Shown here piece after piece: positions 18,559 through 44,510 of a stretch of 64,000 bases of DNA (its first letter is position 1; each line of letters starts with the position of its first letter). The stretch is taken from contig OY761614.1 in NCBI GenBank assembly GCA_963664825.1, positions 2,944,001 to 3,008,000 on the forward strand, read 5' to 3'. The DNA comes from an uncultured Holophaga sp. GTDB taxonomy: Bacteria > Acidobacteriota > Holophagae > Holophagales > Holophagaceae. The notes below the pieces were generated by a model. It was not told the DNA's origin, did not search any database, and worked only from the letters and a program-made list of their open reading frames with translations. Both the position numbers and the translations under genes were made by a program.

Positions 18559-18635
18559 GGCTGGGTAGCTCAGTTGGTTAGAGCGAAGGTCTCATAATCC
18601 TTAGGTCGGCGGTTCGAATCCGCCTCCAGCCACCA
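18559..18635 (+). tRNA. tRNA-Met(CAT), elongator type likely
   Basis: Cloverleaf with GGCTGGG/TCCAGCC acceptor stem, D arm, CTCATAA anticodon loop, GGTTCGAATCC T arm and encoded CCA. Ile2 not fully excluded. Confidence 0.93.
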
Positions 18636-18637
18636 GT
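18591..18637 (+). repeat. attL core
   Basis: CTCATAATCCTTAGGTCGGCGGTTCGAATCCGCCTCCAGCCACCAGT, identical to 43561-43607. Confidence 0.93.
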
Positions 18638-18679: not shown

Positions 18680-19090
18680 GTTGTGCTACAACCTTGCTAC
18701 ACGTTGGGTCTGCGCCACATGTGAGCTTGTGCGGCCATGTGCGGTAAAAACAGCAGGAAGGCACCATGTAGGTGGCTCGAAGCGAACTCGCCACCATCCT
18801 TTGGATCTCATAGGGAGGCCTATTCCCGGAGGTTCCATCGACCAGAAGGCCAATGGCCTCGTTGCAGCACCGAGCAAAGGGCTAGTTAGGAACACAGAAC
18901 TTTTCGGAAGCCCCCAAAACACAAGGGCATGCGGGCAAAGGGGAACGGCCCGAAGGGTCGTAACCCTTTGGGTGGCAAGTTGTGCGTGGCGCATTACTGT
19001 GGCGCCCGGTGGGCTAAGCCCTGTCTTTCGATAGGTTGGGGATGGTGTGTTCGTGTTGCGGCACCAGTTCGATGCACCAGGAGGAGCACC

Positions 19091-19555
19091 ATGAATGAAC
19101 GGAAAGGCCTACCAGTATTGGGTTCTAGGCATGCCAAAAGCATGGTGCATGCTCGCGTTGGGACGGAATCCTGGGAGGTGTTGGAGGAGCTCGCCAGGCG
19201 TCAGGGTGTGACCCATACGCAAGCCCTCCGGAACCTCCTGGACGATGCGAAGGAGCGCATGGCCGAGGAGGCCTTCGGGCCTCGACTCGAATCCCTGGCA
19301 CGCACGCTCCTGGGAGTGGTGGAGCAGCAGGCGCGGCATGCCACCCGCATCGAGGCGCTGGTGGCCATCCTGCGGAAAGTCGAGGAGGGCCAGGCGGAAC
19401 GCGAGGCGCAGATTCTCCAGACCCTCTCCGGCGTGGTGGGGCTTTGCCAACTCACCTACGCCCACCTCCTGGGTGTGGTGGAATCCAGTCCGCGAGCTGC
19501 CGAGATCACCACCTCCGCCCAGGCCAAGATGCGCGCCCTGCGCGGGGAGGGATGA
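19091..19555 (+). CDS. Ribbon-helix-helix / MobC-like relaxosome accessory protein (putative)
   Basis: AGGAG RBS; strand-helix-helix pattern MVHARV...WEVLEELARRQGVTHTQALRNLL; overlaps the relaxase start. Confidence 0.6.
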   Translation: MNERKGLPVLGSRHAKSMVHARVGTESWEVLEELARRQGVTHTQALRNLLDDAKERMAEEAFGPRLESLARTLLGVVEQQARHATRIEALVAILRKVEEGQAEREAQILQTLSGVVGLCQLTYAHLLGVVESSPRAAEITTSAQAKMRALRGEG

Positions 19556-21108
19556 TGCCCATCATCAAGATCGGGTTCCGCCCCGGCTTCCGGGGACGCA
19601 CCCAGGCACCCACCTGCAACCGGCGGATGCACTACCTGGCCAGCCAGCACGACCGGGATTCGGCGCGCCTGCTGGGGGCCGAAGGGCAGGAGCTGACCCC
19701 GAGCCAGGCCGCCGAGGTGCTGGGAGGGCCCCAGGCCAGCTACCACGAGATCATCGTGGCCCCGAGCCACGCGGAGTGCGAGGCGATCCGAGCCCGTTGC
19801 CCAGAGGATCCGGGCCGTGCCGCACGAGAGGCGGGTGATCGACTGGCGAAGGCCTGCGCGAAGGGGCGCCCGTACGTGCTCGCCATCCACGAACAGGATG
19901 GGCGTTTCCACTACCACCTGGCAGTGGCAGGCCCCATGCCCGAGCGGGCCCTGGGGCGCCACGGCCAGGTACAGAAGACCTGGGATCGCGAATTCGGCGG
20001 AGACGAGCCCCGGATCCAGGACTGGGCCGCGCATCGGCGCTTCCAGCAGGAGCGGGCCCGCCTCCAGGAAGTGATCCGGACTCAGAAGGAAACTGAACAG
20101 GAGCGGCGGGAGGCTGTGAAGCGGGCCACGCCGGAGCGCAAGGCCGACGTAGCTAGGCCCTTCGAGCGGAGGGCTCGCGACCTAGTGGAGGAGCGCTACC
20201 AGGTGGAACTGTGGGCCATCCAGGCGCGCTACGAGGCGCGGGGCAGCCTCGGAAGCCCCAGACATAACGCTGAGATCGAACAGGCCGAGCATCGCCGCAC
20301 GGGCTCCCTGCGACGGCTGGAACGGCGGGAAACAACTCGTGAAATTGGCGTGTTCAAGGCGAAGCTCGGGCGTGTCGTGGAGAACGGTGGGCGGGCCCTC
20401 CAAAAGGGGACGCGGACCGGAGGAAGGATCGCCCGCCAGGCCGTAGACGTGGGATTGAAGAGCCTGGGCGTGCCCAGGCCCATCCGAAAGCTCACGGGCG
20501 CCAGTCTGGTGCTGGCCCAGGAGACGGTGCAGACGGCGCTTCGGGCGGCCCAGGAGGCCGCGAAGGCCGCTGCCCGAAGCAGCGTGCATGTCGCCCAGGC
20601 CTCAATGAAGTTGGGCTTGGGCCTCGTGACGGCCCTCCCCACGGCGGGCGCCAGCCTGACGACTGCCGGAAAGGAAGCTGCCCAGGACCTAGCCCAGGCC
20701 GGGAAGGAACTTGGCCAGGGGGCCCTCCGAACCGGCGCTGCCGTGGGCCAGGGGGTCGCACGGGCGATGGTGGCCACGGGGCAGCAGCTGATCCCCAGCG
20801 AGCTCGGCCTCGCAGGGCGGGCCGCCAGCGTGACGGCCCGCACCACCGCTGGAGCCGCCAAGGACGTGCTCACCCTCTCACCCCTATCCCTGGGCCAAAC
20901 CCTCGCGGGGGGCGCCCTGGACCTCGGCAAGACAGCCGCCCGTGCCGCCGGGGCGAACGCCAGCCTACCGGAGCCCCTCCGGCGGGCCTTCCAGGTGGCG
21001 GGCTGGGTGCCCGTGGTGGGTGTCGCCGCCAAGGCCGCCCAAGTCACAGCCGAAACCACGCAAGCCATTCACAACGCCGCATCCCGCGGCATGGAGGTAG
21101 ACCGATGA
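19552..21108 (+). CDS. HUH relaxase (MOBP-like) with long Ala/Gly-rich C-terminus
   Basis: Motif I MHYLAS, motif II HEIIVAPS, motif III AIHEQDGRFHYHLAV; lies between the RHH gene and the T4CP gene. Confidence 0.72.
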   Translation: MMPIIKIGFRPGFRGRTQAPTCNRRMHYLASQHDRDSARLLGAEGQELTPSQAAEVLGGPQASYHEIIVAPSHAECEAIRARCPEDPGRAAREAGDRLAKACAKGRPYVLAIHEQDGRFHYHLAVAGPMPERALGRHGQVQKTWDREFGGDEPRIQDWAAHRRFQQERARLQEVIRTQKETEQERREAVKRATPERKADVARPFERRARDLVEERYQVELWAIQARYEARGSLGSPRHNAEIEQAEHRRTGSLRRLERRETTREIGVFKAKLGRVVENGGRALQKGTRTGGRIARQAVDVGLKSLGVPRPIRKLTGASLVLAQETVQTALRAAQEAAKAAARSSVHVAQASMKLGLGLVTALPTAGASLTTAGKEAAQDLAQAGKELGQGALRTGAAVGQGVARAMVATGQQLIPSELGLAGRAASVTARTTAGAAKDVLTLSPLSLGQTLAGGALDLGKTAARAAGANASLPEPLRRAFQVAGWVPVVGVAAKAAQVTAETTQAIHNAASRGMEVDR

Positions 21109-22985
21109 ACAACCTGATCCTCAACCTGCTCCGCGCCTGGCATGGAGGCGGAGCCCTTGCCATGACAGGTCTTGGGCTCCTGGGCCTGCTCTGGTGCTTC
21201 CTTCGCTGGGCCTGGGTGGAGCGTGAGCACCCTCTGGTCCTCCTGCGGGATCGCTTCCACGGGCTCACCCGTTGGCTGCTGCTGCACCGCCGTTCTCCGA
21301 AGACCCTTCCCCTCAGCGTAGTTCTGATGGCCCTGGGCCTGGGCATGACCTGGGCCGTGGAGCAGGAGGTCTTCGTGCGAGGGGCGTTCCGTAACGGCCC
21401 GCTCTTCCTGGGAGCCCATGCGGTGCTGGTACTCCTGGCGCTGGTGGCCTGGGTTACCTGGAACCGGGAACCCAAGTATGTAAAGTCGGGCGAGGGCCGC
21501 GCCGATGCCCGGTTCCGCGACGTGGCCGAGGAATGGAGCGTGCGCGTGGTGGAGGGTGGTACGACCCACACGGACAACCGCCCCACAGCCGAGTTGCTGG
21601 TGTACCGCAGCCCCTCGCGCCTGGCATGCCGCATCGTGGCAGCGGGCCAGCACAAGGGGTGCAACCTCACCCTGCTGTCCTTCCGCTGGGACATCCTCTC
21701 ACGGCACGTTTTTGTGGTGGGCCCCCAGGGCTCGGGCAAGACCGCCAGCCTCTACGCGCCGATCATGCACAGCTCGCTAGTGCCTTGGATCTACCAAGAC
21801 AGCAAGGCCGAGCTGCCCTTCCGCGATGAGTTCCCGGATCGACCTGTCTTCGGCTTGGACGTGCGCGGACACGCCACCCGCAGCGGCATCTGGAACCCGC
21901 TGGAGGAGATCCGCAGCGCCGAGGATTTCGATCTCATCGTGGATTACCTTTTCCCGAGTGATCCAAATGATAAGAACAAGTGGATCCGAGATATGTCTCG
22001 CGTGCTTTTCGGGGTGATTCTCCGTCTTCAACGATGGGAGAGCATCCAAGAGATCGCACGAACCCTGCGGAAGACACGACTAGAACCCCTGCTTGCGCAG
22101 CTTGATCCTATCTATTTGGATACAATGAAAGACCCGCGAAGCCAGGCAATTGTGCTCACGGATCTAGTCGTTGGGCTGAGCCGCTGGGAAACCGTTCGGG
22201 TGCGCAGCATCACCGAGGGCAGGAGCACCGTCACCTTGGACGATTTCATCGCCAGGGGCGGCTACCTGATGAACTGCGAGGACAGCGATGCCCTGAAGGG
22301 CCCCGTGTATGTCTTCTGGGCCATGCTGCTGGGGCGCTTGAGGAATCGCCCCGAAGGCGCATCGAAGCTCCTGCTTCTACTCGATGAGTTTGGCGACTGT
22401 GGGCGCATCCCGAACATCCAGCGGGCCCTGGTGTTGCTGCGCTCCAAGGGCGTCTCCATCGTGGCGGGCATCCAGAACCTGGGCTTGCTCCAGGATGTCT
22501 ATACCCAGGACTGGAAGGCGGTCATGGAGGGCTTCGGCACACGAATCTGGCTGGCTCGGAACCTGGAAGACGATCTGCGCGAGCGGCTCTCCAAGGCCTT
22601 GGGCAAATTCACGCGCCGCGTCCCGCCTGCCAACAAGAACGCCAAGGAAACGGAGAAGGAGGCCGACCTCATGCCCGTGGATGCCTGGGGTCGCTGGTCT
22701 GAGCTGCGGGTAGCCCTGGGGCGCCTGCATGGATTCACCTACTGGTTCCCCGTACCCATCGAGATCCCACGCACGCCCCTGGGCGAGGTGCTGCCCGGCG
22801 GCGATCCCTGGGCCGATTCCGAGGCGGAGGCCAAGGCCGCTGCCCAGGATGCCCTGAAGGCCATCGAGTTGCCGGAATGGTGTCTCCAGGTGCCTACAGA
22901 ATTGGCGACGCCTGATGCCGATCCTCAGCCCTCTCATAGCCTTGAGAGTGTCATCCGCACTGTGCATGAGGAGGACTGGCTGTGA
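21105..22985 (+). CDS. Type IV coupling protein (VirD4/TraG-like)
   Basis: N-terminal TM helices; Walker A GPQGSGKT; WNPL; Walker B LLLLLDEFG; RSKGVSIVAGIQNLG. Confidence 0.85.
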   Translation: MNNLILNLLRAWHGGGALAMTGLGLLGLLWCFLRWAWVEREHPLVLLRDRFHGLTRWLLLHRRSPKTLPLSVVLMALGLGMTWAVEQEVFVRGAFRNGPLFLGAHAVLVLLALVAWVTWNREPKYVKSGEGRADARFRDVAEEWSVRVVEGGTTHTDNRPTAELLVYRSPSRLACRIVAAGQHKGCNLTLLSFRWDILSRHVFVVGPQGSGKTASLYAPIMHSSLVPWIYQDSKAELPFRDEFPDRPVFGLDVRGHATRSGIWNPLEEIRSAEDFDLIVDYLFPSDPNDKNKWIRDMSRVLFGVILRLQRWESIQEIARTLRKTRLEPLLAQLDPIYLDTMKDPRSQAIVLTDLVVGLSRWETVRVRSITEGRSTVTLDDFIARGGYLMNCEDSDALKGPVYVFWAMLLGRLRNRPEGASKLLLLLDEFGDCGRIPNIQRALVLLRSKGVSIVAGIQNLGLLQDVYTQDWKAVMEGFGTRIWLARNLEDDLRERLSKALGKFTRRVPPANKNAKETEKEADLMPVDAWGRWSELRVALGRLHGFTYWFPVPIEIPRTPLGEVLPGGDPWADSEAEAKAAAQDALKAIELPEWCLQVPTELATPDADPQPSHSLESVIRTVHEEDWL

Positions 22986-23482
22986 GCGATCCGGGATGGG
23001 TTTCCTACGGGCGAGGCGTTGTCGAGGATGGCCTTGCCAACCTCGATGGCTGGGCGGATATCGTCGTGGACCTTCGTGCAGAAGGCCTGGAGGATGGGGA
23101 AATCACCCTGGTCCTGCGGGAGCAGCAGGCCTGGACGGCCGAAGCTCGCGAATGGAAGCAGCATGGGTTCCCCTACGACGAGATCATCACCCGACTCCGG
23201 GATGAGCTGCTGGCGGAGTGGGGAGATGTGGCCCACGCGTTGATGGAGGTGGGTCTTCCACCCGCCGATATGCTGCGCGCGGTTCTCCCGCTCACCGAGG
23301 AGAGCGAGCTGGTTCTAGTGGTGCAGGCCGCGCTCCTGGACGGTCCAGAGGATGCGGACTACCAGGAAGTTCGTGGCGTGTTGGGATTCTTCTTCAGGAG
23401 CGAGGAAGAGGCGCTCGGAGTGTTGGATCTGGATGGCGTTCAACGGGAGATTGCAGCCCAGCGTTTGGGGCTCTCGAGGTAG
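22982..23482 (+). CDS. Acidic hypothetical protein
   Basis: GTGA overlap with the T4CP stop; GAGGAGG upstream. Confidence 0.65.
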   Translation: MSDPGWVSYGRGVVEDGLANLDGWADIVVDLRAEGLEDGEITLVLREQQAWTAEAREWKQHGFPYDEIITRLRDELLAEWGDVAHALMEVGLPPADMLRAVLPLTEESELVLVVQAALLDGPEDADYQEVRGVLGFFFRSEEEALGVLDLDGVQREIAAQRLGLSR

Positions 23483-23684
23483 TTGTCTGGATTGAGGTGA
23501 GGGCATGGGAGGCCACGGCTTTCCGTGCCCTTTCCCGTGTCAGGCACTGCCGGTTGTCCTGATCCCGCGCCACGGCGGGCCTACCCGCTCTCTACCCGGT
23601 CCCCGGTTCGTTCCCGGTCCGGCCCTGGGGAGCGGGGGACCCCGGTGTGTTCGTGCCCCGACCCGGTGGGCACGGAGAAACGCC

Positions 23685-24383
23685 ATGACCCCTACCAGCC
23701 TTTCCCTCTTCGATCAGCCAATCACCACTGCTCCCAGCCAACCCAAGAGCTTCCCCGTTGCCGAGACGGTTGCCCTCTACGGTCCCGAGTCCCTCTCGGA
23801 TGCCCAGATCATCGAAGCCATGCTGAACCGCGTCCGCCCAGGAAGGGCCGAGGAGATCCTCCACCAGGTCGAAAGCCTGGGACGCCTGGTTGCCCTGGGG
23901 CCCGCCGAACTTCAGGCCCTCGGCCTCACAAAGGGCGAGATGGCCCGCTTCGCGGTCCTCCAGGAGGTGCAGCGCCGCTCCACCCGCAGCTTTGAACGCC
24001 CGCGCATTTCCTCCCCCAGGGCCGCCGGGAGCTACCTGCTGCCCAAGGCCCAGGGCTGGACCGAGGAGCGCTTCGGGATGCTGGCCCTAAACGCCAAGGG
24101 CGAACTGCTCGCCGACCGGGTGCTGGCCCACGGCACCGCCACCGCCTGTCTCATTAGCCCTCGGGAGTTCTTCCGGGAAGCCCTCCGCTTCGGCGCCACC
24201 ACGGCCCTGGCCTGGCATAACCACCCGTCAGGGGATCCTACTCCTTCCCGCGAGGATTGCGCCCTCACCAACCGCCTACGCTCTGCTGGCGAGAGCCTGG
24301 GGGTGCCCCTGGCGGACCACATGGTTCTGGGCAGCGAAAGCTGGCACAGCTTCCGGGCGGCGGAGGGGTGGGAGCGGAGTTAA
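23685..24383 (+). CDS. radC: RadC-like JAB/MPN domain protein
   Basis: GPESLSD, PREFFREAL, HNHPSGDPTPSRED and LADHMV motifs. Confidence 0.92.
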   Translation: MTPTSLSLFDQPITTAPSQPKSFPVAETVALYGPESLSDAQIIEAMLNRVRPGRAEEILHQVESLGRLVALGPAELQALGLTKGEMARFAVLQEVQRRSTRSFERPRISSPRAAGSYLLPKAQGWTEERFGMLALNAKGELLADRVLAHGTATACLISPREFFREALRFGATTALAWHNHPSGDPTPSREDCALTNRLRSAGESLGVPLADHMVLGSESWHSFRAAEGWERS

Positions 24384-24463
24384 TCGGTCATCGCTCCAGG
24401 CTTGCCCGACGCCACCATCAGAAGACCAGTTCTGGCCATGGACGCGCCTTACCAATTGCATAA

Positions 24464-25972
24464 TTATATACTATTCAACAACGGCATTGCTTTAAATCGT
24501 CCCAACAATGCCAGCACCCCTGGATCCGTGATCTCAGAACATGCCCGTTCGGCTTCGGTGAGAAGACCCGAGGTGGATTCGGCCTTGGCGTGAATTTCCT
24601 CTTTCAGAAGGTGAAGAATCGCCATGGCTTTGAGAGTTCGGTCCCCGGTGGCGGCTTCAATCGCCTTCAGGTAGAGGGCTTTCCCGGCAGCAGTTTGTCC
24701 AGATCGATAATGGAGAAGCCCATCTGTGGCCAAAAGGGTAGTGTTGAGGAAGGGGCCGTCCTTCTGTTGAGGAATTGAATCAAAAACCAATTTTGCTTCC
24801 CCGATCTTGCCTTGGTATGCAAGTGCCACCGCCTTGTTATTGAGAAGAACAGGGTGAGTGGGGTTTGCCCGAAGGCCAAAATTAGATATCTCTTCACTCA
24901 ATTCAGGATTTTCGAGCAAAGTGCAAGCAAGGTACGAGCCAAACGTCGCTGGCCTCGATGAAAAAGGCTCATCCAGGCCCCACTTAATGAACGCATCAAG
25001 AGACTCTTTCCAGCTCCCTCTCAGATAGGCGAGACGAGCCTGTGCCTCATACGAACGTTCAACACTCTTAACATCTGTCTGCACGTTGATGGTCTTGATC
25101 CGTTTCGCCAACCAGACAGCCTGGGCGACAGCATTTTCAGTCGGAGTCCCGAGGCTTTGCTTGATCAATTTCTTTCCCTGCTTATGGTTCCCAGCAGCCA
25201 ATTCCATGGACCCTAAAGCGCTGGAAAGTTCTGAGAGTTGTAATTCAGAGAAGGAGGCCGAGGCAAGCATCTCCCGCGCCGATTTGATATTCACCGCAGG
25301 CGCCTCGGCGACCTCCGAGGTAGCGATCTGGGCAGCAAGGAGCCACGGGTCTCGCACTGTTGCAGGGCTTCTACTCAGAATCGCGAGTGCCCGGTCTGTA
25401 TCCTTGTTATGAATATACAGCCGTGCAGCCGATCGCAGAATGTAACGATTATTTGGCGCCGCCTCCACCGCACGTCTCATCGCTCGGAGAGAGGGACCAA
25501 GCTGTCCGATCAAGACGTATGCGCGGGCAAGATCGGCCCAAAGAAGCGGATTCATTGGGTAATCAATTAATGTTCTTTTAATCGCCGCAATCTGAACCTG
25601 AGCCAACTTATGGCTGAATTCAGGCTCGGATGAAATTGTTGGTGCTTGTCTTGGTTTGATCTGATCAAGAACAGCCTTCGCCAAGGATTGGCTGAACGGC
25701 GATGCTGTCGGAAAGCCCAGGATCAATTCGGCGGCAGGCCTCGCCTCAGAGAATCGGTTGAGGGCCATGGCGCCCACAATAATGTCGTACGCGATGCCAG
25801 GCGTCTGTTGTTCGCACCATTCCTTCAATGAATCTTCAAAATCAGAGGACTCAATCAGAACAGTGCTTCTGAGGGCCTTAAGTGGGCTCAGTTCACCAAC
25901 CTGAATCGTAGTCGCAGAGTCTCTCCATCTTGGGATGACTCTTCTTTTGTCATCTTTAACCCCGAGGCTCAT
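24464..25972 (-). CDS. TPR-repeat protein (502 aa), kinase-associated
   Basis: TPR-like helices (NPLLWADLARAY, APNNRYILRSAARLY, LNNKAVALAY); 4-nt gap after the kinase stop. Confidence 0.8.
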   Translation of the reverse strand: MSLGVKDDKRRVIPRWRDSATTIQVGELSPLKALRSTVLIESSDFEDSLKEWCEQQTPGIAYDIIVGAMALNRFSEARPAAELILGFPTASPFSQSLAKAVLDQIKPRQAPTISSEPEFSHKLAQVQIAAIKRTLIDYPMNPLLWADLARAYVLIGQLGPSLRAMRRAVEAAPNNRYILRSAARLYIHNKDTDRALAILSRSPATVRDPWLLAAQIATSEVAEAPAVNIKSAREMLASASFSELQLSELSSALGSMELAAGNHKQGKKLIKQSLGTPTENAVAQAVWLAKRIKTINVQTDVKSVERSYEAQARLAYLRGSWKESLDAFIKWGLDEPFSSRPATFGSYLACTLLENPELSEEISNFGLRANPTHPVLLNNKAVALAYQGKIGEAKLVFDSIPQQKDGPFLNTTLLATDGLLHYRSGQTAAGKALYLKAIEAATGDRTLKAMAILHLLKEEIHAKAESTSGLLTEAERACSEITDPGVLALLGRFKAMPLLNSI

Positions 25973-25976
25973 GAAC

Positions 25977-27044
25977 TCACGCCTTCTTTCTGAAGACGAA
26001 TTCCGCCTTGCTTGCCATCAGATTGAACTTCGACACATACCGCTCCATAGAAAACTGCATGGCGCCATTCCCTCTTGCTTTTGGGTTCCCGCGTCGAGCA
26101 ATGTCCGGGTCGCAAAGTTGGGTGATGGTTTCCAGGATCTCGTCGCGAAATTCGGGATCAATGGCGGGCCGTAGTCGTTCTATCACTGTGCCGAATGATT
26201 TTTTTATTACAGGCAAAACTTCCATATAGGTCCCAGTCCAGTCGCCGCTCCATGTTCTGGGCCGATGTGAAACGGGAGTTACATTCATTAATTCTGGGGT
26301 CATCGCCGTGCCGGCGAAGAAGTAGACAACCATGCTCCCGAGAAGGTATAGATCGCAGCCATGCCGACGCACGTACCAATTGTCGCTGATGTGATTGAAC
26401 AGCAATTCTGGGGGTGCGTAGCGCAAATCACCTTGAACGGGATGAATCTCATGAGGCGGTTTTTTCCCCTGGGCTGCTGCGCGCCCCATGTCCGTGATCT
26501 TAGAAACGTTGTCGTTGAACACGAGCACGTTGGAAGGTTTCAAGTCCTGGTGTGCAATCGCCTGTTTGTGTAATTGCCACAAGCCGGTAGCGATGTGATG
26601 GAGGGCCCGAAGTCTGAGTGCGATGTCAAATCTCCGGGAGAAATCAATTTGAGATCTGACATCTCCATCTGCCAATTCAAAGATTAGATAGGGGACAGCG
26701 CCTGCATCACCTGCATCCGCGATTCGTGTCGTTCCATCCGCAATTGCTGTGGCTATCTTGTCGAGGCGACGATCCCGGCATAGATTCAATATGTCTCTTT
26801 CAAAATTGTACCCTTCGGTGAGGGCTTGGATTGCACGGGCGGGATCGGCGGACCCTAGGGCGGAGGAAATATCGAGAGCTTTCAGGAATGCCTTCCGGCC
26901 CTTCTCGTCCTCGACAAAATACCCCACGGAAAAAGATCCGCCTGTAGAACTGGGGCCCCTGGAATGCCTTTCGATGACCTTCCATCCACCATCAAGGGTC
27001 AACCCAATCAATCTCTCAGCAGGCTTCAGGGCAGGAGTGGGCAT
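25977..27044 (-). CDS. Soluble Hanks-type Ser/Thr protein kinase
   Basis: GGSFSVGY, AFLKAL, HQDLKPSNVLV, DMG, YAPPE and DLYLLG motifs; GAGG RBS before ATG 27044 (ORF open to 27125). Confidence 0.88.
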   Translation of the reverse strand: MPTPALKPAERLIGLTLDGGWKVIERHSRGPSSTGGSFSVGYFVEDEKGRKAFLKALDISSALGSADPARAIQALTEGYNFERDILNLCRDRRLDKIATAIADGTTRIADAGDAGAVPYLIFELADGDVRSQIDFSRRFDIALRLRALHHIATGLWQLHKQAIAHQDLKPSNVLVFNDNVSKITDMGRAAAQGKKPPHEIHPVQGDLRYAPPELLFNHISDNWYVRRHGCDLYLLGSMVVYFFAGTAMTPELMNVTPVSHRPRTWSGDWTGTYMEVLPVIKKSFGTVIERLRPAIDPEFRDEILETITQLCDPDIARRGNPKARGNGAMQFSMERYVSKFNLMASKAEFVFRKKA

Positions 27045-27133
27045 TTGGTTCCTCGGAAGTAATCTATTCGCTAAGCTTGGTGAATGGTATCTATTTTCAG
27101 CAAAAGGGACGTCATTCCGGCTCACTCGGCCAA

Positions 27134-27439
27134 TTAAACCCGGGGATAGGCGAACTTCAGGCCCAGCATCTCCGCATAATCCTTGGCCTGCTGGAGGTCG
27201 TCCGAGGCGGCCTTGTACTCGGCCTTCGCTTCCACTATTGCGATGGGGAAGTCGCGCCGGAAGCGAAGCAAGTAGTCCACCCGCTTTGGAGGGCGACGGA
27301 TGAATCCTTTGCCGACAGAAACGATCCGACCATCCGTGATGGACCTCTGTTCCGCGATGGAATGAGGTTCGGCGTCCCAGCCCGCCACCTGAAGCAGGGG
27401 GACGACAAACTTCCTACAGGTGTCGGCTTCAGTGGGCAT
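27134..27439 (-). pseudogene. hsdR: N-terminal fragment of a type I restriction R subunit
   Basis: TEADTC...P.L..AGW, VDYLL, IVEAK, LQQAKDYAEMLGLKFAY, then an abrupt stop. Confidence 0.8.
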
Positions 27440-27505
27440 GGTTTGGCGATCAGGGTCTCGGTGAAAAGGGCGATTCTCGTTTCACTCTATCGCTTATGAG
27501 GAGAT

Positions 27506-27829
27506 TTGCTGAGCCGTTTATTCCTTGGTTGGTATTTTCCTGCGAGCCCATCGAAACCAAGAAGGGCCAGGGCATTATCTTCATCGACGGCCGCCAAGAC
27601 CGCCTTCGCGGGACTCCTTCAGGGCTCCACCCTCAATGGCGATCAGATCGACTTCTTGGACATTATGATTAACCGTCTCACCGAGCACGGCGCCATGGAT
27701 CCGGCACTGCTCCACGAATCGGCCTACACGGACATCAGCCCCAAGGGGATGGAGGGAGTGTTTGATCCTCCGCAGGTGGAGCTGCTGCTTGGATTATTGG
27801 CGGATGTGCGGCAGAGAACGGTGGCGTAA
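27506..27829 (+). pseudogene. C-terminal fragment of a type I restriction R subunit (EcoEI R C-terminal-like)
   Basis: AAKTAF...LNGDQIDFLDIMINRLTEHGAMDPALLHESAYTDISPKG. Confidence 0.7.
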
Positions 27830-27877
27830 AATGCAAGTATTATTATTTTTAATATTGGCTTGCGCAAATTTACATGA

Positions 27878-28510
27878 TCATGGGTTATCTATCCCAAGAT
27901 CTGGCATCGATTCATAAACTGTTGCAACTTCTTTTATACCAAATAAATACAATTCGCCATTGATGGCAGCTATATCCATTACATCACTTGAATCATAATC
28001 ATTCGAATTTGTTTCATGATTATGACCAGACGCAATATTATCGTTATTTTTGTCAATTTTTGCTTTTTTTATTATAGATTCGTCAAATTTTCTTATTGCT
28101 TCTGACAAGTCCGACGATTTGCCCTTAAACACCAGCTTTGGATCAACACGTATTATTGTGCGCACCCCAGCCGTTGTCTTCATGCCTTTAGGTCTTACAA
28201 TAACGCCTGATTTTTCTAACCCCCTAAGTGCCCTATTGTATGCCTGAGGACACATTCCTAATTCGGGTGCCAGTTCCGTTTGTGCCAAAAAAATCCAGTT
28301 ACTAAACTGCATTTTGGCAATTAGATGCAGTAATACCTTTAGTTGAACCGGAGTAACTTTTTTCGATGTTGATGAGGTTATTACAGACAACAACTTGGTC
28401 TGCTTAAGGGTTACCCAGGCAGCTGCAGGTATTATTCGATCATCCATAATGGTTGAATCATCGACGCAACCGCTATCTTGAGATCCATTCCCCGTCTCAG
28501 GCTTTGACAT
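27878..28510 (-). CDS. RepL-like winged-HTH replication/regulatory protein
   Basis: KVLLHLIAKMQFSNW...QTELAPELG...NRALRGLEKSGVI...VDPKLVFKG; AT-rich. Confidence 0.6.
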   Translation of the reverse strand: MSKPETGNGSQDSGCVDDSTIMDDRIIPAAAWVTLKQTKLLSVITSSTSKKVTPVQLKVLLHLIAKMQFSNWIFLAQTELAPELGMCPQAYNRALRGLEKSGVIVRPKGMKTTAGVRTIIRVDPKLVFKGKSSDLSEAIRKFDESIIKKAKIDKNNDNIASGHNHETNSNDYDSSDVMDIAAINGELYLFGIKEVATVYESMPDLGIDNP

Positions 28511-28883
28511 AACTCACCTACTCCGCCAGACACAAACACGAACCACACATACAGCTCAAAGCACTCCAAACGGGTCAATTAACCCTGGGGTTAATGGGGA
28601 AGGTCATAATATAGAATAGCCATGGGCTACCCACGTGTCAAATAGGCAATTAACTTGTGTACCCGCAGCACTTTAGACATCGCCCATAACCTACAAAGTA
28701 GGAATCCGCTAAGCGTAGGAGCGTAATCGGTTCGTTTTGAGTTGGTCTCATGGAGGAGTCGAGGCCTCCGACACTCCAGAGTCTGAACCACAATCCGAAC
28801 CCATCCTCCGAATGCAGGTGGTCTCTACCCAATCCCATTTGAAATGGGATGCGGAGGTGGAACTTTATCCCGAAGGAGCAAGT

Positions 28884-29168
28884 GTGTTGCCACGTAAACA
28901 GCCGAACACCCTGACACCAGATCAAAATGCGAGTCCCTCCGCACTAGAGTGCCTCCACCTCATCACTCAATACCCAAATCGCTACCTGAAGACCCCCCAA
29001 GCCGCCATCTACCTTGGGCTTTCCGCCCGATACCTTGAAGGCCTTCGCTGTGCGGGTGGAGGGCCACCATTCATCAAGCTGGCACCCCGAAAAGTGGTCT
29101 ACGACCTCCTGGACCTCGACGCTTGGGCTGATAGCTACCGTCGCCGAAATACGGCTCAGGAGGGATGA
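28884..29168 (+). CDS. AlpA/excisionase-like HTH protein
   Basis: YLKTPQAAIYLGLSARYLEGLR..GGGPPFIKL..KVVYDLLDLDAW; AAGGAG before GTG 28884; start uncertain. Confidence 0.8.
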   Translation: MLPRKQPNTLTPDQNASPSALECLHLITQYPNRYLKTPQAAIYLGLSARYLEGLRCAGGGPPFIKLAPRKVVYDLLDLDAWADSYRRRNTAQEG

Positions 29169-29989
29169 TCATGCCGCGGGAAAGTCGACTCTCAGAACCC
29201 CTCCCCTGGTATCCCTGGCAGCCCCTCCTGTGGCAGGCCGACCGTGTGGTCCAAAAGCTGTCCTGGGCCGAACGCGGGCTGCTGCGGGAGCTGCAGGACG
29301 AGTGCTACCTCAGACGCAGCATCCCACCCGATCTGGATGCCCTGGCGGATCTCCTGGCCGTAGAACCGGGAGAGATTGTCGAGTTCCTGCCAAAGGTACT
29401 TCGCCACTTCAAACCGACAGAGGGAGGGCGCTTGGTCAGTCCCCTGATCGAAGGGATTCACGAAAAGCAGGATGAGGCCCGCTTGAAGCAGTCCTTCCGG
29501 CGTCTAAAACAACCCTCTTCAAATTTCCGGCCTTATCCAGGGACCACCGCGGACACCTGCGGACCAGGAGAAGAGGAGATAGAGATAGAAAATAACAATA
29601 AACGGAAGAAAGATACTCCTGCGGGGTATTGCCCAGAGGCGGCGCTGCCGACTCCTGGGCAGGACGACACCGGCCTCACTCTTCCCTGCAATGGAAGCGG
29701 GCCACAGAGTTGGCCCATAACACCCCAACTGCTCTCTAAGTGGGCGCTGGCATTCCCCGGAGTCAACCTCCAAGCTGAGAGTCAAAAAATGCGCCTCTGG
29801 TTGGAGCAAAACCCCAAAAAGGGCAAAACCTACGCTGGAATGTCGCGATTCACGCTGGCATGGCTTTCTCGGTCCCAGGACCAGGGAGGCTCTTCCCGCG
29901 AAGGTAATTCCATGAGGAAGAGGCCCGAGTCAGACCTGAGCGCTCAACTCGAACAAATCGATTGGAATGGAGATGTAAATGCACAATAG
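29165..29989 (+). CDS. Phage-type replication initiator (DUF1376/YdaU-like)
   Basis: LPWYPW...ADR.V..LSWAERGL.RELQD; EIEIE linker; C-terminal KMRLWL..NPKK.KT..GM.RF...WLSR.QD. Confidence 0.75.
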   Translation: MIMPRESRLSEPLPWYPWQPLLWQADRVVQKLSWAERGLLRELQDECYLRRSIPPDLDALADLLAVEPGEIVEFLPKVLRHFKPTEGGRLVSPLIEGIHEKQDEARLKQSFRRLKQPSSNFRPYPGTTADTCGPGEEEIEIENNNKRKKDTPAGYCPEAALPTPGQDDTGLTLPCNGSGPQSWPITPQLLSKWALAFPGVNLQAESQKMRLWLEQNPKKGKTYAGMSRFTLAWLSRSQDQGGSSREGNSMRKRPESDLSAQLEQIDWNGDVNAQ

Positions 29990-30560
29990 GACGCTGTTTC
30001 TGCTCGAACATATTGGGCTTGCCCCAAAGGAACTGAATTACCTGGGTCAAGAGGCCATCCTGCAGGTTCCCCACCGTCCGAGTGGGTACGGCTTGGTTGG
30101 TAGCACGGGCACAGGTAAGACCTGCCATTTGGCCCGAGGGTTAGGGCAGACGATCGAGGCCATAGTTTTGGTGGCACCTGAACCTGCCCGCGCTTGTCTC
30201 CCCCGGAATGGATTTCGCTGGATTAATTGGCCTATGCGTGTTGAGAAAATCAAGCGTCTGGTCTCGAACAAACAATTCCAAGATATCGACGAAATAGTCT
30301 CAAGCCTCGCAGACGTGGGGCAGCTCTATCTCGATGATCTCGGGCGGGAGCGCATCGCCAATGACCATGACTATGGTGTTGGAATCCTCGCCGAGATTAT
30401 CGACCACCGCTACCGGCACAACCTGCCAATCTTCTGGAGCTCAAATTTCGCCCCTCAGGAACTCCTGGGGAAGTATCATGACGCGATCATCAGCAGGCTC
30501 GTCTCAACTTGGCCGCCAATCGTGATCAAGGGGAAGGACTTGAGGCTGCCTGAACGCTAA
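29979..30560 (+). CDS. DnaC/IstB-like AAA+ helicase loader
   Basis: GSTGTGKT, LYLDDLG and IIDHRY..NLP..SSN motifs. Confidence 0.8.
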   Translation: MHNRTLFLLEHIGLAPKELNYLGQEAILQVPHRPSGYGLVGSTGTGKTCHLARGLGQTIEAIVLVAPEPARACLPRNGFRWINWPMRVEKIKRLVSNKQFQDIDEIVSSLADVGQLYLDDLGRERIANDHDYGVGILAEIIDHRYRHNLPIFWSSNFAPQELLGKYHDAIISRLVSTWPPIVIKGKDLRLPER

Positions 30561-30751
30561 GCCTTCAGTCTTGGAGACTGGTGGCCTCGTTCGTGGAAGC
30601 AGCCACCCGGAATGGCCATCCATGGCATGAGAGTCCGGAAGAGCTAAAGGGTCGCAATGGTCTTCTGTGGAGACTTCGAGACTGGGGAATCTGGCCGTTG
30701 CCTGAGCAATTGAAGGGCTGAATCTGTTGAGAAAGGGCCGGGGCAACCCGG

Positions 30752-32176
30752 TAATGCCGCTCACTTAGGGATTTTATAGACAAAACGGACGTCGTATCTC
30801 GATGGTCGTGATTTGACGAGGCGGGGGCATTGTCGCCCCCGCCTCTCCTCTTTGAGGGCTTCCTTGAGCTGTTCGCGCAGGCGGTGCAGCATGCCTGGGA
30901 TGTTGCCGACAGCCTTGGTCATAGCGGCGAACAGAAGCTGGTGCTGGACGTAATGCAGGGCGCGGATGAAGCTCAGGTCTGTGGGCTGGGCCTTCGCCTC
31001 CAGGGCAGCCTTCGCCATTTCCAGGCGCGCGAGGTTGTAAGCGATCAGGGCCCCCCAGATCTCCTGAGCGATGCCTTCGGGATCCTGACTCCGCAGAGTC
31101 AGTGGGCCGCCCAGCATCGTCTGCTTCAGTTCGCGGTAGCTCGTCTCCACCTCCCAGCGCCGCAGGTCGCAGGCCGCGATGTCGGAAGCTGTGAACCTCC
31201 TCCGATCCATCAACGAGGTCAGTAGGATGCGTTCCCTGCCGTCGGGCAGCACCGTGCGGATGGCCCGGGCCTCCCAGGTTTCGGGAAGCTCCGGGTGCTT
31301 CTTCCGTGCCTGGGGCGAGACCTTCATCTGCACGATGGCATCATCAGATGTGCCGGAGATGACTTCCCACTTCGTGTGGGCCTTGGACGGAATGAGGAAA
31401 TGGCGCTGCTCGCCGTGCAGGGTCAGTCCAAGCAGGATGGCGGCCGAGAAGAATCCCTTGTCGAATACCGTGAGCGAGCGGTCGGGGATGCGAGGGACGA
31501 GTTCCTCGGCGTAGCGCATCTCATTGGTGTCGTATTCCCCGAAGGCCATGTCGGCCACGAGGCGCGTGGGCAGGGCCATCAGGCTGACACCGCGCACCTG
31601 CGGATAGCTCGCGGCCTTCCCGCTGGCATAGCCCTGGGCCCCGAAGAACGCGCGGTTCTCGGGGCTGTCGGGCGTCCGGAAGGTCGTGCCATCCATGGCC
31701 CAGAGCGACAGCCCTTTCCATACGTAGGAGGATGCATCCAGAGCGCACCAGGACTGGGCCGTTCGCTCGAACAGCAGCGCCAGTGGCTTCGCGCCCAGGC
31801 GCTGGCGGGCCTGGGAAATGCCGGCCCGCGTGATTGGGGAGGATGTCCCGTTCGGGAGCACCAGATCGAGGGATTCCAGCACCTCGGACATGGATGTGCC
31901 GCGATAGAGGGCGAGGGCGATCACCAGCCAGACGACCTGCTCCGCAGGCAACCGACGGCGACGGATGCTCGCCGTGCCCGTGCGCGACAAAGACTCCTCA
32001 ATCCAGGCCAGAGGCAGATGTGCCCCCAGCCGACCAAGCCCGTCCGTCGGGAAACCGCTGCAAGCAGCGTCCAGTTCGAATGTCAGGAGAGATGCGTCAG
32101 CCATCTCTGGCTTGTGCAACATCCCTATTGATAAGTACATATAAAAATGCCGCTCAGTGTTAACTGAGCGGTATTA
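30752..32176 (-). mobile_element. IS4-family insertion sequence (1425 bp)
   Basis: Imperfect TIRs TAATGCCGCTCACTTA / TAACTGAGCGGTATTA; 13-bp TSD CGGGGCAACCCGG at 30739-30751 and 32177-32189. Confidence 0.93.
30761..32140 (-). CDS. IS4 family DDE transposase
   Basis: RRRRLPAEQVVWLVI, MDGTT, FDKGF and RWEVETSYRELK motifs; start uncertain. Confidence 0.93.
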   Translation of the reverse strand: MYLSIGMLHKPEMADASLLTFELDAACSGFPTDGLGRLGAHLPLAWIEESLSRTGTASIRRRRLPAEQVVWLVIALALYRGTSMSEVLESLDLVLPNGTSSPITRAGISQARQRLGAKPLALLFERTAQSWCALDASSYVWKGLSLWAMDGTTFRTPDSPENRAFFGAQGYASGKAASYPQVRGVSLMALPTRLVADMAFGEYDTNEMRYAEELVPRIPDRSLTVFDKGFFSAAILLGLTLHGEQRHFLIPSKAHTKWEVISGTSDDAIVQMKVSPQARKKHPELPETWEARAIRTVLPDGRERILLTSLMDRRRFTASDIAACDLRRWEVETSYRELKQTMLGGPLTLRSQDPEGIAQEIWGALIAYNLARLEMAKAALEAKAQPTDLSFIRALHYVQHQLLFAAMTKAVGNIPGMLHRLREQLKEALKEERRGRQCPRLVKSRPSRYDVRFVYKIPK

Positions 32177-32443
32177 CGGGGCAACCCGGCTCTTTCTCGT
32201 TTGAGATGGATATATCCCTCAACGCCCTCATTCAACGTCAGATTTAGAGAACCCATTCATTCAGGTGAGCCATCTTTTCTCGCCAGGGAGAATCGCCACC
32301 GAGAGCCATCAAAGATGGTCTCAATGGGGCTGCGCATTGGGCGGGAAGGATATCTTGCTTAAACGAGTTATGGAAAATCAATTGTATCAACGATACACTA
32401 ATCGGCTTGAATTCGCCCATTAGGGCGCCCATCGGAGTCCAGC

Positions 32444-42110: not shown

Positions 42111-43388
42111 CTAACGGCGAGCTCCCTTCGGAAGACCCAAGAGGTCTCCAGCGATTTGAGCTCCGATTTCCTCAGAGGCATTGGCCTTGGGATCCTCTGC
42201 AAGGTGTGCATAGCGCTGCGTCACAGAAGGCTGGCTATGCCCAAGAAGAGAGCCAACGATGGGAAGACTCAGCCCCTGAGAGACCCCCACGCTGGCGAAG
42301 GTATGACGGAGGTCGTGAATGCGAACATCCTCAATATTCACCATATCTTCAGTTCGTTTCTTTTTCTTCGCGACCTTTGCTGCTTCCAGCCTTGAAACAC
42401 TTTCGCGGACACGTTCCCACACCTTTTGAAGACCCACGAAGTGGGCTCCTGTCTTGTTCCCCTGGATCACAAAGGGGTTCCCGAGTGTTTGAGGGATTTT
42501 CCTGAGGATATCCACGGCTGGCGCGTTAAGCGGAATGACCTTGGAGCCTGTCTTCCTACCTGTCTTATGTTGATCAGCACTGAAGGTGATGACCTTTCTC
42601 TGCAGGTCAATCTGTGACCAGCGAAGTTCGATGATCTCGCTGTGCCTCGCGCCGGTGAGGATCAGTAATCGGATGGCGGCAAGGGCTGGTGGCGGAATGG
42701 TCTTTTCTGTTTCCGCCTCCAGAAGTGCCTCACCGAGAACTTGAAGCTCCTCCGGCCTCAGGAATCGCTCTCGTTTGCTCTCCGGATTCTTCTCAATGTG
42801 AATGCATGGGTTGCTTGAGAGCGCCCGGTATTTCCAGATCTCCGCGCAGTTGAACATTTTTCGAAGAATGGCCACAGCCTGATTCGCTTGACGTGGTGTC
42901 CCACGAAGATCGTGATGGAACTTTGCGATCTCCGCTGTCGAGACGTCCTTCACCAGGAGGTTGCCGAGCTTGGGCTCAATGACCTGGCGAAGATAGCGGA
43001 TATACCCCCTCGTCGTGCTCGCTTTCGTCTTGGGCTGAACATGCTCCTCGATGAATCTATCGATGAGCTCCTTGAGCATCGGAGCTGTGCGCTGAGATCG
43101 AATGTCGATGGTTGGATCGATACCCCTTGCGACCTCGCCCCTCCGAGAGTGTGCGAGTTTTCGCCCTTCCTCCAGGGTCAGGTCACCAAATCGCCCCAAG
43201 GTAATCCACCGCTGCTGACGGTTGATGGTGAATTTCAAGACGAAGGATTTCTGGCCAGAGGTCATTATGCGAACTCCAAATCCCGGCATTTCCTGATCCC
43301 AGATTGTGTAGACCTGGTCCCTTGCCCGAAGGCTATCAATCAGCCGTTTGGTCAACTTGGTCCGGTTCGAAATCTTTGCGTCTTCCAT
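42111..43388 (-). CDS. Tyrosine integrase with N-terminal arm-binding domain
   Basis: WD..MPGFGVR...G.KSF; catalytic TGARHSE, HDLRH, LLGH and TQRYAH; GAGGGA RBS (ORF open to 43421). Confidence 0.95.
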   Translation of the reverse strand: MEDAKISNRTKLTKRLIDSLRARDQVYTIWDQEMPGFGVRIMTSGQKSFVLKFTINRQQRWITLGRFGDLTLEEGRKLAHSRRGEVARGIDPTIDIRSQRTAPMLKELIDRFIEEHVQPKTKASTTRGYIRYLRQVIEPKLGNLLVKDVSTAEIAKFHHDLRGTPRQANQAVAILRKMFNCAEIWKYRALSSNPCIHIEKNPESKRERFLRPEELQVLGEALLEAETEKTIPPPALAAIRLLILTGARHSEIIELRWSQIDLQRKVITFSADQHKTGRKTGSKVIPLNAPAVDILRKIPQTLGNPFVIQGNKTGAHFVGLQKVWERVRESVSRLEAAKVAKKKKRTEDMVNIEDVRIHDLRHTFASVGVSQGLSLPIVGSLLGHSQPSVTQRYAHLAEDPKANASEEIGAQIAGDLLGLPKGARR

Positions 43389-43560: not shown

Positions 43561-43607
43561 CTCATAATCCTTAGGTCGGCGGTTCGAATCCGCCTCCAGC
43601 CACCAGT
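43561..43607 (+). repeat. attR core (displaced tRNA 3' half)
   Basis: Identical to 18591-18637; followed by hairpin AAAGCCCCGA...TCGGGGCTTT. Confidence 0.93.
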
Positions 43608-43781
43608 GCAAAGCCCCGACACCACTAGGTCTCGGGGCTTTTCATTTCCGTTGAAATACCTTGCCTCTGACGAGTTTGGGATGGCGTTCAACGTCTGTAA
43701 GTATTGGAAAACAGGGTTCAATTGTGGGGTCAGTCCCAATACAGTCCCAATGGAAAACCCTGGGTGCAGCCCCCACGATAG

Positions 43782-44010
43782 GGAATTTGGACCAGATGGA
43801 AGGAGCTTGACACCACGACAGCTCTAGTAGAAGTCCTTCAGGATCAGCATGTTCTAACTGGGGGAAAAACCCCCAGTTTGGAAGTTCTGAAAACAAAGGA
43901 AGGTAGAAGCGGCGGGACGTGGGCCGTCCGAGGCTTGGCCCTGGCCTACGCCAAGTATCTTTCTCCTGAGTTCCATGCGGCCTGCCTGCGGGTCATTGAG
44001 GAGCGCATGG
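43782..44010 (+). pseudogene. KilA-N domain fragment
   Basis: WKELDTT...GRSGGTWA..LALAYAKYLSPEFH; in-frame TAG upstream and no proper start. Confidence 0.7.
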
Positions 44011-44036
44011 TGTTTCTCGGGACCGTTCACTTGGGC

Positions 44037-44510
44037 TCAGCGGGATCGCATTGGGACTGTATTGGGACTGGGAGGCGCGAAAGCCACGGCCTGAGCCTCT
44101 CGGATGTCATCCTCGACCATCTGGACGTATCGCTCGGTTGTGGCGATGTCCTTGTGGCGGAGCGCTTTTTTGATCGTGAAGGCGTTGACTCCGGCGCGGG
44201 CCATCAACGTAGCGCAGGTGCCGCGCATCCTGTGGGGTGTCAGGCCGACTACCCCGATGGCATTCCCGGCCCGGGCAATGGCCTTCTTGGTGAACTGTCC
44301 TTCATGGGGGATACCGAGTCCTGGCTGGGGTAGGACCCATTCGCTGTCCTTGGGCAGGAATTGTAATAGGCCCAGAATCTCTTCATGCACCGGCAGGGCC
44401 ACGGCCTCGAAGCCCTTGGTGTCGTCATGGGTGTAGGTCTTGTAGCCTTCCGAGAATCCTCTCCATTTTAGATGGAGGGCTTCTTCTTCTCGCAGGCCCA
44501 GGTAGAGCAA
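44037..44510 (-). pseudogene. Truncated tyrosine recombinase (catalytic domain only)
   Basis: GLREEE, HRMRG, LRH and TERYV motifs; in-frame stop a few codons upstream. Confidence 0.8.

Follow-up and report, generated by a model that had tools for sequence, protein, structure and literature searches.

What a stand-alone protein kinase and a repeat protein encoded directly behind it do for the mobile island that carries them is the question raised by positions 24,464 to 27,044 of a 64,000-nucleotide stretch of DNA from an uncultured Holophaga sp. (GenBank assembly GCA_963664825.1, contig OY761614.1, positions 2,944,001 to 3,008,000), hereafter the window. An initial annotation had read the two genes as a candidate anti-phage operon in which a tetratricopeptide repeat (TPR) protein gates a toxic Ser/Thr kinase, and had not recognised them as a named system. 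We found that they are almost certainly a full-length copy of the catalogued candidate defence family PDC-M71, and that an anti-phage role, or one against other mobile genetic elements, is probable. The two genes are as follows.

25977..27044, minus strand: PDC-M71A kinase, a Hanks-type Ser/Thr kinase of 355 residues, non-RD (HQD), soluble and without an extra domain.
24464..25972, minus strand: PDC-M71B TPR superhelix protein of 502 residues, with a conserved N-terminal RxxPRWR peptide.

The anatomy first described for the operon proved correct throughout. The kinase gene comes first, and 4 nt separate its stop codon from the TPR gene on the same strand; the non-RD kinase carries HQDLKPSN at residues 165–172 and DMG at 185–187, and the 502-residue TPR protein was predicted to consist of helices only, its extended N-terminus excepted (predicted score of the local distance difference test, pLDDT, 91). 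The ATG start gives the 355-residue kinase, which is exactly the form of the database protein, and an in-frame GTG lies 27 codons upstream. The low G+C content, the opposite strand, the position directly behind a truncated hsdR and the radC gene beside the pair were likewise all found as stated. The pair has a G+C content of 0.521 against 0.637 for the genome, a value equally low in 1.4% of 1346 equal-sized genome windows, and its third-position G+C contents of 0.57 and 0.53 compare with 0.79–0.88 in radC, a coupling protein gene, a relaxase-like gene and two host genes. Both radC and the mobilisation genes run on the other strand, so that the TPR gene and radC converge across 80 nt. Around the pair we found no sigma-70 promoter consensus, terminator-like sites only at chance level and no repeats above chance. 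A public short-read contig, which may come from the source sample, covers positions 24059–33000 with 0 differences.

We judged family membership by profile hidden Markov model matches to PADLOC-DB v2.0.0. The kinase matched PDC-M71A (E = 1.8e-114, 380.8 bits, residues 5–351 on profile positions 5–349 of 352) and the TPR protein matched PDC-M71B (E = 2.3e-124, 413.9 bits, residues 1–475 on 1–487 of 515; a second model matched at E = 1.1e-51), the next best PADLOC models reaching 67 bits for the kinase and 15 bits for the TPR protein. The family has the same two-gene make-up, and both proteins match its profiles end to end. The pair thus has a PADLOC entry after all: it is a new copy of an already listed predicted family, from which it differs in nothing of substance. 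Its nearest named homologues are those of Geothrix sp. PMB-07, with 73% identity for the kinase and 63% for the TPR protein.

The available part of Payne et al. 2024 describes 145 phage defence candidates (PDCs), defined by embedding within known defence systems and presented as predictions awaiting tests, and reports that 7 of 9 tested embedded candidates gave protection (bioRxiv 10.1101/2024.01.29.577857). PDC-M71 is not named in the main text of that source, and its supplementary tables may describe the family. Its homologues show the embedding by which PDCs are defined in that source, since the pair lies between hsdS and hsdR of a type I restriction-modification (RM) system at locus L067 and within Hma at locus L065. 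A full-text literature search for PDC-M71 returned a soil-virus survey only, which in its available part merely counts the family; a published name for the kinase–TPR pair may exist. A match to a published system had been named beforehand as speaking against the initial annotation. That point tells against the annotation by half, as the match is there, but to an entry that is itself a prediction.

The pairing of the two genes proved to be conserved. A GTDB scan with a TPR alignment yielded 235 stretches encoding a relative, of which the best 80 were analysed (a single-sequence query of the same genomes matched nothing), and a metagenome scan with the kinase yielded 357 loci, of which the best 80 were analysed together with 14 viral contigs; genes of the fetched loci were called by a simple script that missed or mis-started some low-GC genes. 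The kinase gene lay directly upstream on the same strand in 75 of the 80 TPR-found genome loci (3 ended at a contig edge and 2 were without a kinase), and the TPR gene lay directly behind the kinase in 70 of the 80 kinase-found metagenome loci (8 at an edge, 2 without a TPR gene) and in 13 of the 14 viral contigs, the 14th carrying a distant kinase. Three plasmids also carry both genes side by side. Across 130 pairs, the pairwise identities of kinase and TPR protein were correlated (Spearman 0.71, shuffled maximum 0.13). Hosts among the best 80 of the 235 stretches include Acidobacteriota, Bacteroidota, Pseudomonadota, Actinomycetota, Verrucomicrobiota, others and one archaeal bin, and the TPR profile at E ≤ 1e-30 drew 2525 clusters (50% identity), some of them perhaps generic TPR proteins. 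Distribution is patchy, as the TPR gene was present in 0 of 400 other genomes of the phylum searched. No third conserved gene was seen beside the pair, GenBank phages gave no match for either protein, and no kinase–TPR fusion was found, which is weak evidence of absence. At two loci (L010 and L037) the pair sits inside housekeeping operons without adjacent mobile genes, between gyrB and gyrA in one and between dnaK and clpB in the other.

Defence genes are enriched around the family, as had been proposed. At 79 of the 80 loci we scanned up to three called genes of at least 100 residues on each side, 411 genes in all less one that was a piece of the kinase, and compared them with 124 genes drawn from 20 regions spaced evenly along the window's genome, at a PADLOC threshold of E ≤ 1e-15. 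Matches were obtained for 70 of 410 neighbour genes and 6 of 124 control genes. Generic models were then taken out by judgement (mad2, mad3, oxidoreductase, GlgB, generic kinase, ClpB, RmuC, RtcR and DndA; 13 genes among the neighbours and 5 among the controls), which left 57 of 410 neighbour genes, spread over 32 of 79 loci, and 1 of 124 control genes, in 1 of 20 regions (Fisher P = 4e-6 and 0.003), an enrichment limited by a single control genome, non-independent related loci and the post hoc model filter. The neighbouring systems include RM, DISARM, AbiE, CBASS, Hma and Pycsar, and the 32 loci include the 2 that are without a kinase.

We then asked what kind of kinase is involved. It scores 62.8 bits against Pfam Pkinase, above the cut-off, and its predicted model (pLDDT 95) has a protein kinase fold that matches eukaryotic protein kinases in fold searches. 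The full Hanks motif set is present, comprising the Gly loop (G35-G36-x-F38), the beta3 Lys (K55), the alphaC Glu (E82), the DxKxxN loop (D167-x-K169-x-x-N172), the DFG-like motif (D185-M-G187), the APE Glu (E213), the subdomain IX Asp (D231) and the subdomain XI Arg (R318). Each motif residue is conserved in 106–130 of 130 homologues, the catalytic residues in 128–130 of them, and K55, E82, D167, N172, D185 and R318 in 129–130 of the 130 paired homologues. In 126 of 130 kinases Gln stands in place of the RD arginine, and before the P+1 loop no activation-loop position is Ser, Thr or Tyr in more than 45% of them. By textbook reasoning, loop phosphorylation does not switch a non-RD kinase that lacks a conserved loop phosphosite, and its control calls for a partner.

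The TPR protein matched generic TPR superhelices only in fold searches of the PDB, with no catalytic domain, and TPR clusters without function in the ESM Atlas; Pfam, NCBIfam and PADLOC gave no P-loop or NTPase family match. Fold searches showed no solved relative and no similar complex, a negative that rules nothing out. The TPR groove is nearly invariant, and R10, P14, R180, W210, E248, N280, Q284, E309 and W331 are present in 130 of 130 homologues.

A predicted 1:1 complex, a check proposed with the initial annotation, placed the TPR protein on the substrate face of the kinase with a score of 0.87, against 0.00 for the best of 3 controls; in the benchmark of this score, 116 of 157 solved complexes and 2 of 215 mismatched pairs attained that value. 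Runs shared at least 78% of contacts, with a partner pLDDT of at least 84. Residues 19–100 and 133–178 of the TPR protein were predicted to contact kinase residues 36–37, 130–137, 170–171, 201–208 and 244–292, thereby covering the tip of the Gly loop, alphaD, the catalytic loop, the P+1 loop and the alphaF–alphaG region, which by established kinase anatomy form the substrate-binding face. The prediction supports binding of the two proteins, and the modelled position of the TPR protein is compatible with a brake, a substrate or an adaptor. Covariation between the proteins (130 pairs, mutual information with average product correction) placed 12 of the top 200 pairs in the interface against 5–7 in three shuffles, the top pairs resembling phylogenetic noise. 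The invariant polar TPR residues (R10, R180, E248, N280, Q284, E309 and others) sit outside the predicted interface; because of this, the remainder of the TPR protein likely binds a second, fixed ligand.

How, then, might the pair work? The reading that we place first, at somewhat less than an even chance, is a two-part anti-phage switch working by brake and release. In the predicted complex, the TPR protein would hold the kinase by its substrate face. The kinase would need no activation-loop phosphorylation, and the partner would have to act as a brake or switch, because the kinase is non-RD and has no conserved Ser/Thr in its loop. A phage or host ligand would enter the conserved TPR groove and free the substrate site, and the released kinase would phosphorylate host proteins, so that growth stops and the infection is aborted, as described for Stk2 and KKP. 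The pattern of gene loss leans towards the kinase as the costly part: among 75 scorable TPR-found loci, 9 have an intact TPR gene beside a damaged or missing kinase, whereas among 65 kinase-found loci 2 have an intact kinase beside a TPR gene that is lost or cut (P = 0.06).

Several observations weigh against this reading. Near-invariance of the groove is more in keeping with a fixed ligand than with a phage sensor that changes fast. At P = 0.06 the loss asymmetry falls short of significance, the two sets were selected differently, and several of the split kinases come from indel-prone long-read assemblies. Locus L110 has an intact kinase (166–1215) with no TPR gene behind it, the genes that follow presumably being a type II RM pair (the first without a Pfam match); at locus L148 (718–2682) the kinase is intact, and a transposase fragment, which we take by its motif to be IS66-like, truncates the TPR gene after about 76 residues; and loci L004 and L046 combine an intact kinase with a frameshifted TPR gene. 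An always-toxic kinase should not persist at L110 and L148, except where it is silent or where the N-terminal piece of the TPR protein is enough to hold it. The proposed TPR-gated toxic kinase is therefore plausible at most; for a strict type II toxin–antitoxin pair, the predicted binding would fit and the lone kinases at these two loci would not be expected. As for defence itself, 47 of the 79 loci have no specific defence match within three genes, and our literature search, outside which most subscription papers fall, found no experimental test of PDC-M71 or of a kinase–TPR defence pair.

A bolder reading would make PDC-M71 a minimal receptor-kinase immune circuit, in which an unfused TPR receptor, blocked by its own invariant RxxPRWR peptide, connects to a non-RD kinase without an intervening NTPase, second messenger or phosphatase. 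The invariant R176/R180/R184/H188 face would read phosphate, as a mark from the kinase or from a phage kinase, and the switch would amplify itself. We did not find such a kind described among kinase defence systems, and regard this reading as quite unlikely.

The strongest alternative, which we consider somewhat unlikely, keeps the anti-phage role and turns the TPR protein into an activator or substrate adaptor: the kinase would be harmless alone, and the ligand-bound TPR protein would dock to deliver a specific target, whether a host or phage protein or its own linker. This would explain the lone intact kinases at L110 and L148, and the predicted interface is where a substrate adaptor would sit. 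A Ser or Thr occurs within TPR linker residues 28–34, part of the predicted interface, in 80% of the 130 homologues, and the invariant R176/R180/R184/H188 helix face could bind a phosphorylated peptide. No single Ser/Thr position is conserved in the contacting linker, however (18% S/T in the S29 column), and a brake is favoured because no phospho-acceptor position is conserved there; the somewhat commoner loss of the kinase beside an intact TPR gene also tells against an adaptor.

Another alternative denies the anti-phage role altogether, and here the surroundings of the pair become relevant. The pair lies in a 25-kb integrated element, whose features are listed below.

18591..18637, plus strand: attL, the 3′ part of tRNA-Met (18559–18635, ARAGORN), a 47-bp exact direct repeat of 43561–43607.
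19552..22985, plus strand: mobilisation genes, a relaxase-like open reading frame and a type IV coupling protein (PF10412/PF02534/PF12696 above cut-off).
23685..24383, plus strand: radC (JAB domain; PF04002, E = 2.4e-33), the last backbone gene before the cargo slot.
27134..27439, minus strand: truncated N-terminus of a type I hsdR, EcoAI/FtnUII-like (NF046051, residues 3–98 on profile positions 2–96 of 768, E = 9e-29; PADLOC REase_I).
27506..27829, plus strand: second hsdR relic, an EcoEI R C-terminal domain (PF08463, E = 8.7e-07, above cut-off).
42111..43388, minus strand: tyrosine integrase at the right end of the element (PF00589, E = 6e-23; PF13356; PF14659).
43561..43607, plus strand: attR of the element, the 47-bp exact repeat.

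The match of the relaxase-like open reading frame is weak (PF03432, E = 0.083). Two genomes of the same genus have a related backbone, G479 with 84% DNA identity over window positions 18951–24382 and G482 with 84% over the radC region. In G479 the same radC is followed by a PD-T4-10_B-like gene, by PDC-S11 and by a type I RM system with PrrC; in G482 it is followed by a type III RM system, by PDC-S13 and by an unrelated kinase. Because these sister elements carry different defence genes behind the same radC, the site is a defence cargo slot, as the initial annotation had supposed in calling it a defence hotspot. The N-terminal hsdR fragment, which comprises 101 residues (the first ~100 of the protein) and ends 89 nt before the kinase ATG on the same strand, appears to be a relic of the slot's earlier occupant; since hsdR ends remain in the slot, the pair would have replaced most of a type I RM locus. 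No intact copy of this relic was found among the 40 relatives searched. The unrelated kinase of G482 (L245:13804–15863) is a low-GC protein of 292 residues, PD-T4-6/mad6-like, that shares only core similarity with the PDC-M71A kinase, and its gene, behind the type III RM system, overlaps a 394-residue gene without a Pfam or PADLOC match.

Beyond the hsdR relics, window positions 27878–32140 encode a RepL-like helix-turn-helix (HTH) protein, an HTH_17 excisionase-like protein, DUF1376 and DnaC-like replication genes and an IS4 transposase. Further cargo of the element, at 32444–40930, includes a secreted-type protein of 2828 residues that combines immunoglobulin-like and Kelch repeats with a low-complexity stretch rich in Tyr, Gly and Asn. 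Behind attR comes a second integrase fragment (43561–44510), and a third copy of the tRNA-Met 3′ end lies ~30 kb beyond attR (G000:C1:3017964–3018005); at least two elements are therefore stacked at tRNA-Met.

We consider it unlikely that the pair is a module for addiction or maintenance, or serves in signalling, and is carried by mobile elements into the same variable slots as defence genes. Such a module would fit the location of the pair in an integrated mobilisable element, the many loci beside integrases, transposases, plasmid or housekeeping genes without a defence neighbour, and the literature search that found no test of protection. Against it stand the enrichment beside the defence systems named above, the embedding within two of them, the exchange of the pair with RM and PrrC in one slot and, as far as the available part of Payne et al. 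goes, the protection given by most of the embedded candidates tested (bioRxiv 10.1101/2024.01.29.577857). The reverse logic would make the TPR protein the effector and let the kinase silence it by phosphorylation, as in kinase-antitoxin (type VII) systems; we regard it as very improbable. In the predicted complex the TPR protein occupies the kinase substrate site, many of its polar residues are invariant, and the kinase gene is first in the operon, but there are intact TPR genes at loci whose kinase is missing or broken by insertions (L056, L065, L026 and L031), and the fold searches show TPR repeats alone.

Comparison with described systems sets the brake-and-release switch among several relatives in design. 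In KKP (PfkA, PfkB and PfpC), as given in the available part of its description, kinase toxicity is checked by a phosphatase antitoxin that T4 Gp59 inhibits, and the system is carried on mobile elements (PMC11341870). The proposed mechanism resembles it in the partner-checked toxicity of a Ser/Thr kinase, in release by a phage protein and in mobile-element carriage; as far as that description goes, KKP differs in having two kinases and a phosphatase, whereas the present pair has a single kinase, none of its flanking genes encodes a phosphatase, and its TPR partner is predicted to contact the kinase directly. Stk2 of staphylococci is, in the accessible part of its source, a Hanks-type kinase causing abortive infection (PMC11470126). 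The kinase studied here is also of the Hanks type and matches the Stk2 profile weakly, in the core (22 bits, E = 1.3e-05, residues 141–241 on 216–312 of 500), but Stk2 is a single gene of ~500 residues without a TPR partner. Avs/STAND receptors share a TPR superhelix proposed as a sensor, according to the part of the source that was available (PMC13581612), whereas here, set against that same part, there is no NTPase and no fused effector, but a separate 502-residue TPR protein with a nearly invariant groove. DS-6/HipAD is likewise a kinase-based defence, and DS-6 is a two-protein system that needs its kinase activity for protection; DS-6A is, however, HipA-like, with a DUF3037/DUF1829 partner, as seen in part of that source (PMC13092281). 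PD-T4-6, also a kinase-based defence, has models that match the kinase core only, with at most 52 bits. The pair belongs to neither KKP nor Stk2, nor Avs. The interpretation first offered is thus borne out by the pairing, the defence neighbourhood, the cargo slot and the predicted complex, while the view that the system was unlisted has to be given up.

One recurring neighbour could suggest a metabolic partner. The class II ribonucleotide reductase gene nrdJ was the only recurring neighbour that is neither mobile nor defensive, at 12 loci (9 of 80 genome, 3 of 80 metagenome and 0 of 14 viral), where the pair adjoins its 3′ end; locus L006 has the pair convergent to nrdJ. On a 160-row FastTree tree of the kinase this association required 8 changes and arose in at least 7–8 separate events. 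We surveyed the order of locus L017 (Terriglobales by record title), in which 40 of 71 genomes had a long class II gene with room behind it. The first gene behind nrdJ belonged to 34 families among these 40 genomes and was often much lower in G+C; 9 of the 40 matched PADLOC (RM, dCTP deaminase twice, OLD/PARIS-like twice, HEC-07, PDC-M34, retron II-A and CBASS), and PDC-M71 was the first gene in 0 of 40. On these counts we rejected a functional link to ribonucleotide reductase. The nrdJ 3′ end is a general defence hotspot in Terriglobales, an address rather than a target or partner, and a literature search on it returned nothing on the subject by title or start of abstract.

The same site gave several further observations. 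The only longer kinase found, P0200 (820 residues; a single sequence on a single contig), carries the C-terminal portion of NrdJ fused to a complete PDC-M71A kinase and is most likely a frameshift or read-through at an nrdJ-adjacent copy. Low-GC first genes behind nrdJ without a Pfam or PADLOC match (L230:3045–4745, L233:4016–4720, L199:1380–2033, L229:4298–4813 and L232:4572–4895) are candidates for new systems, and L214:1960–3901 holds a base-modification cassette of thymidylate synthase-like and aGPT-pyrophosphorylase/amino acid:DNA transferase-like genes. The nrdJ 3′ hotspot may be a more useful lead to new systems than this copy of the pair.

As a discovery, this copy is ordinary. PDC-M71 is a large family, with members in many phyla as well as in proviruses and on plasmids; PADLOC already allows it to be searched for, and with the predicted complex it now has a specific structural hypothesis that names interface residues. 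If PDC-M71 protects against phage, it would add to kinase-based immunity a design in which a separate TPR protein directly controls the enzyme.

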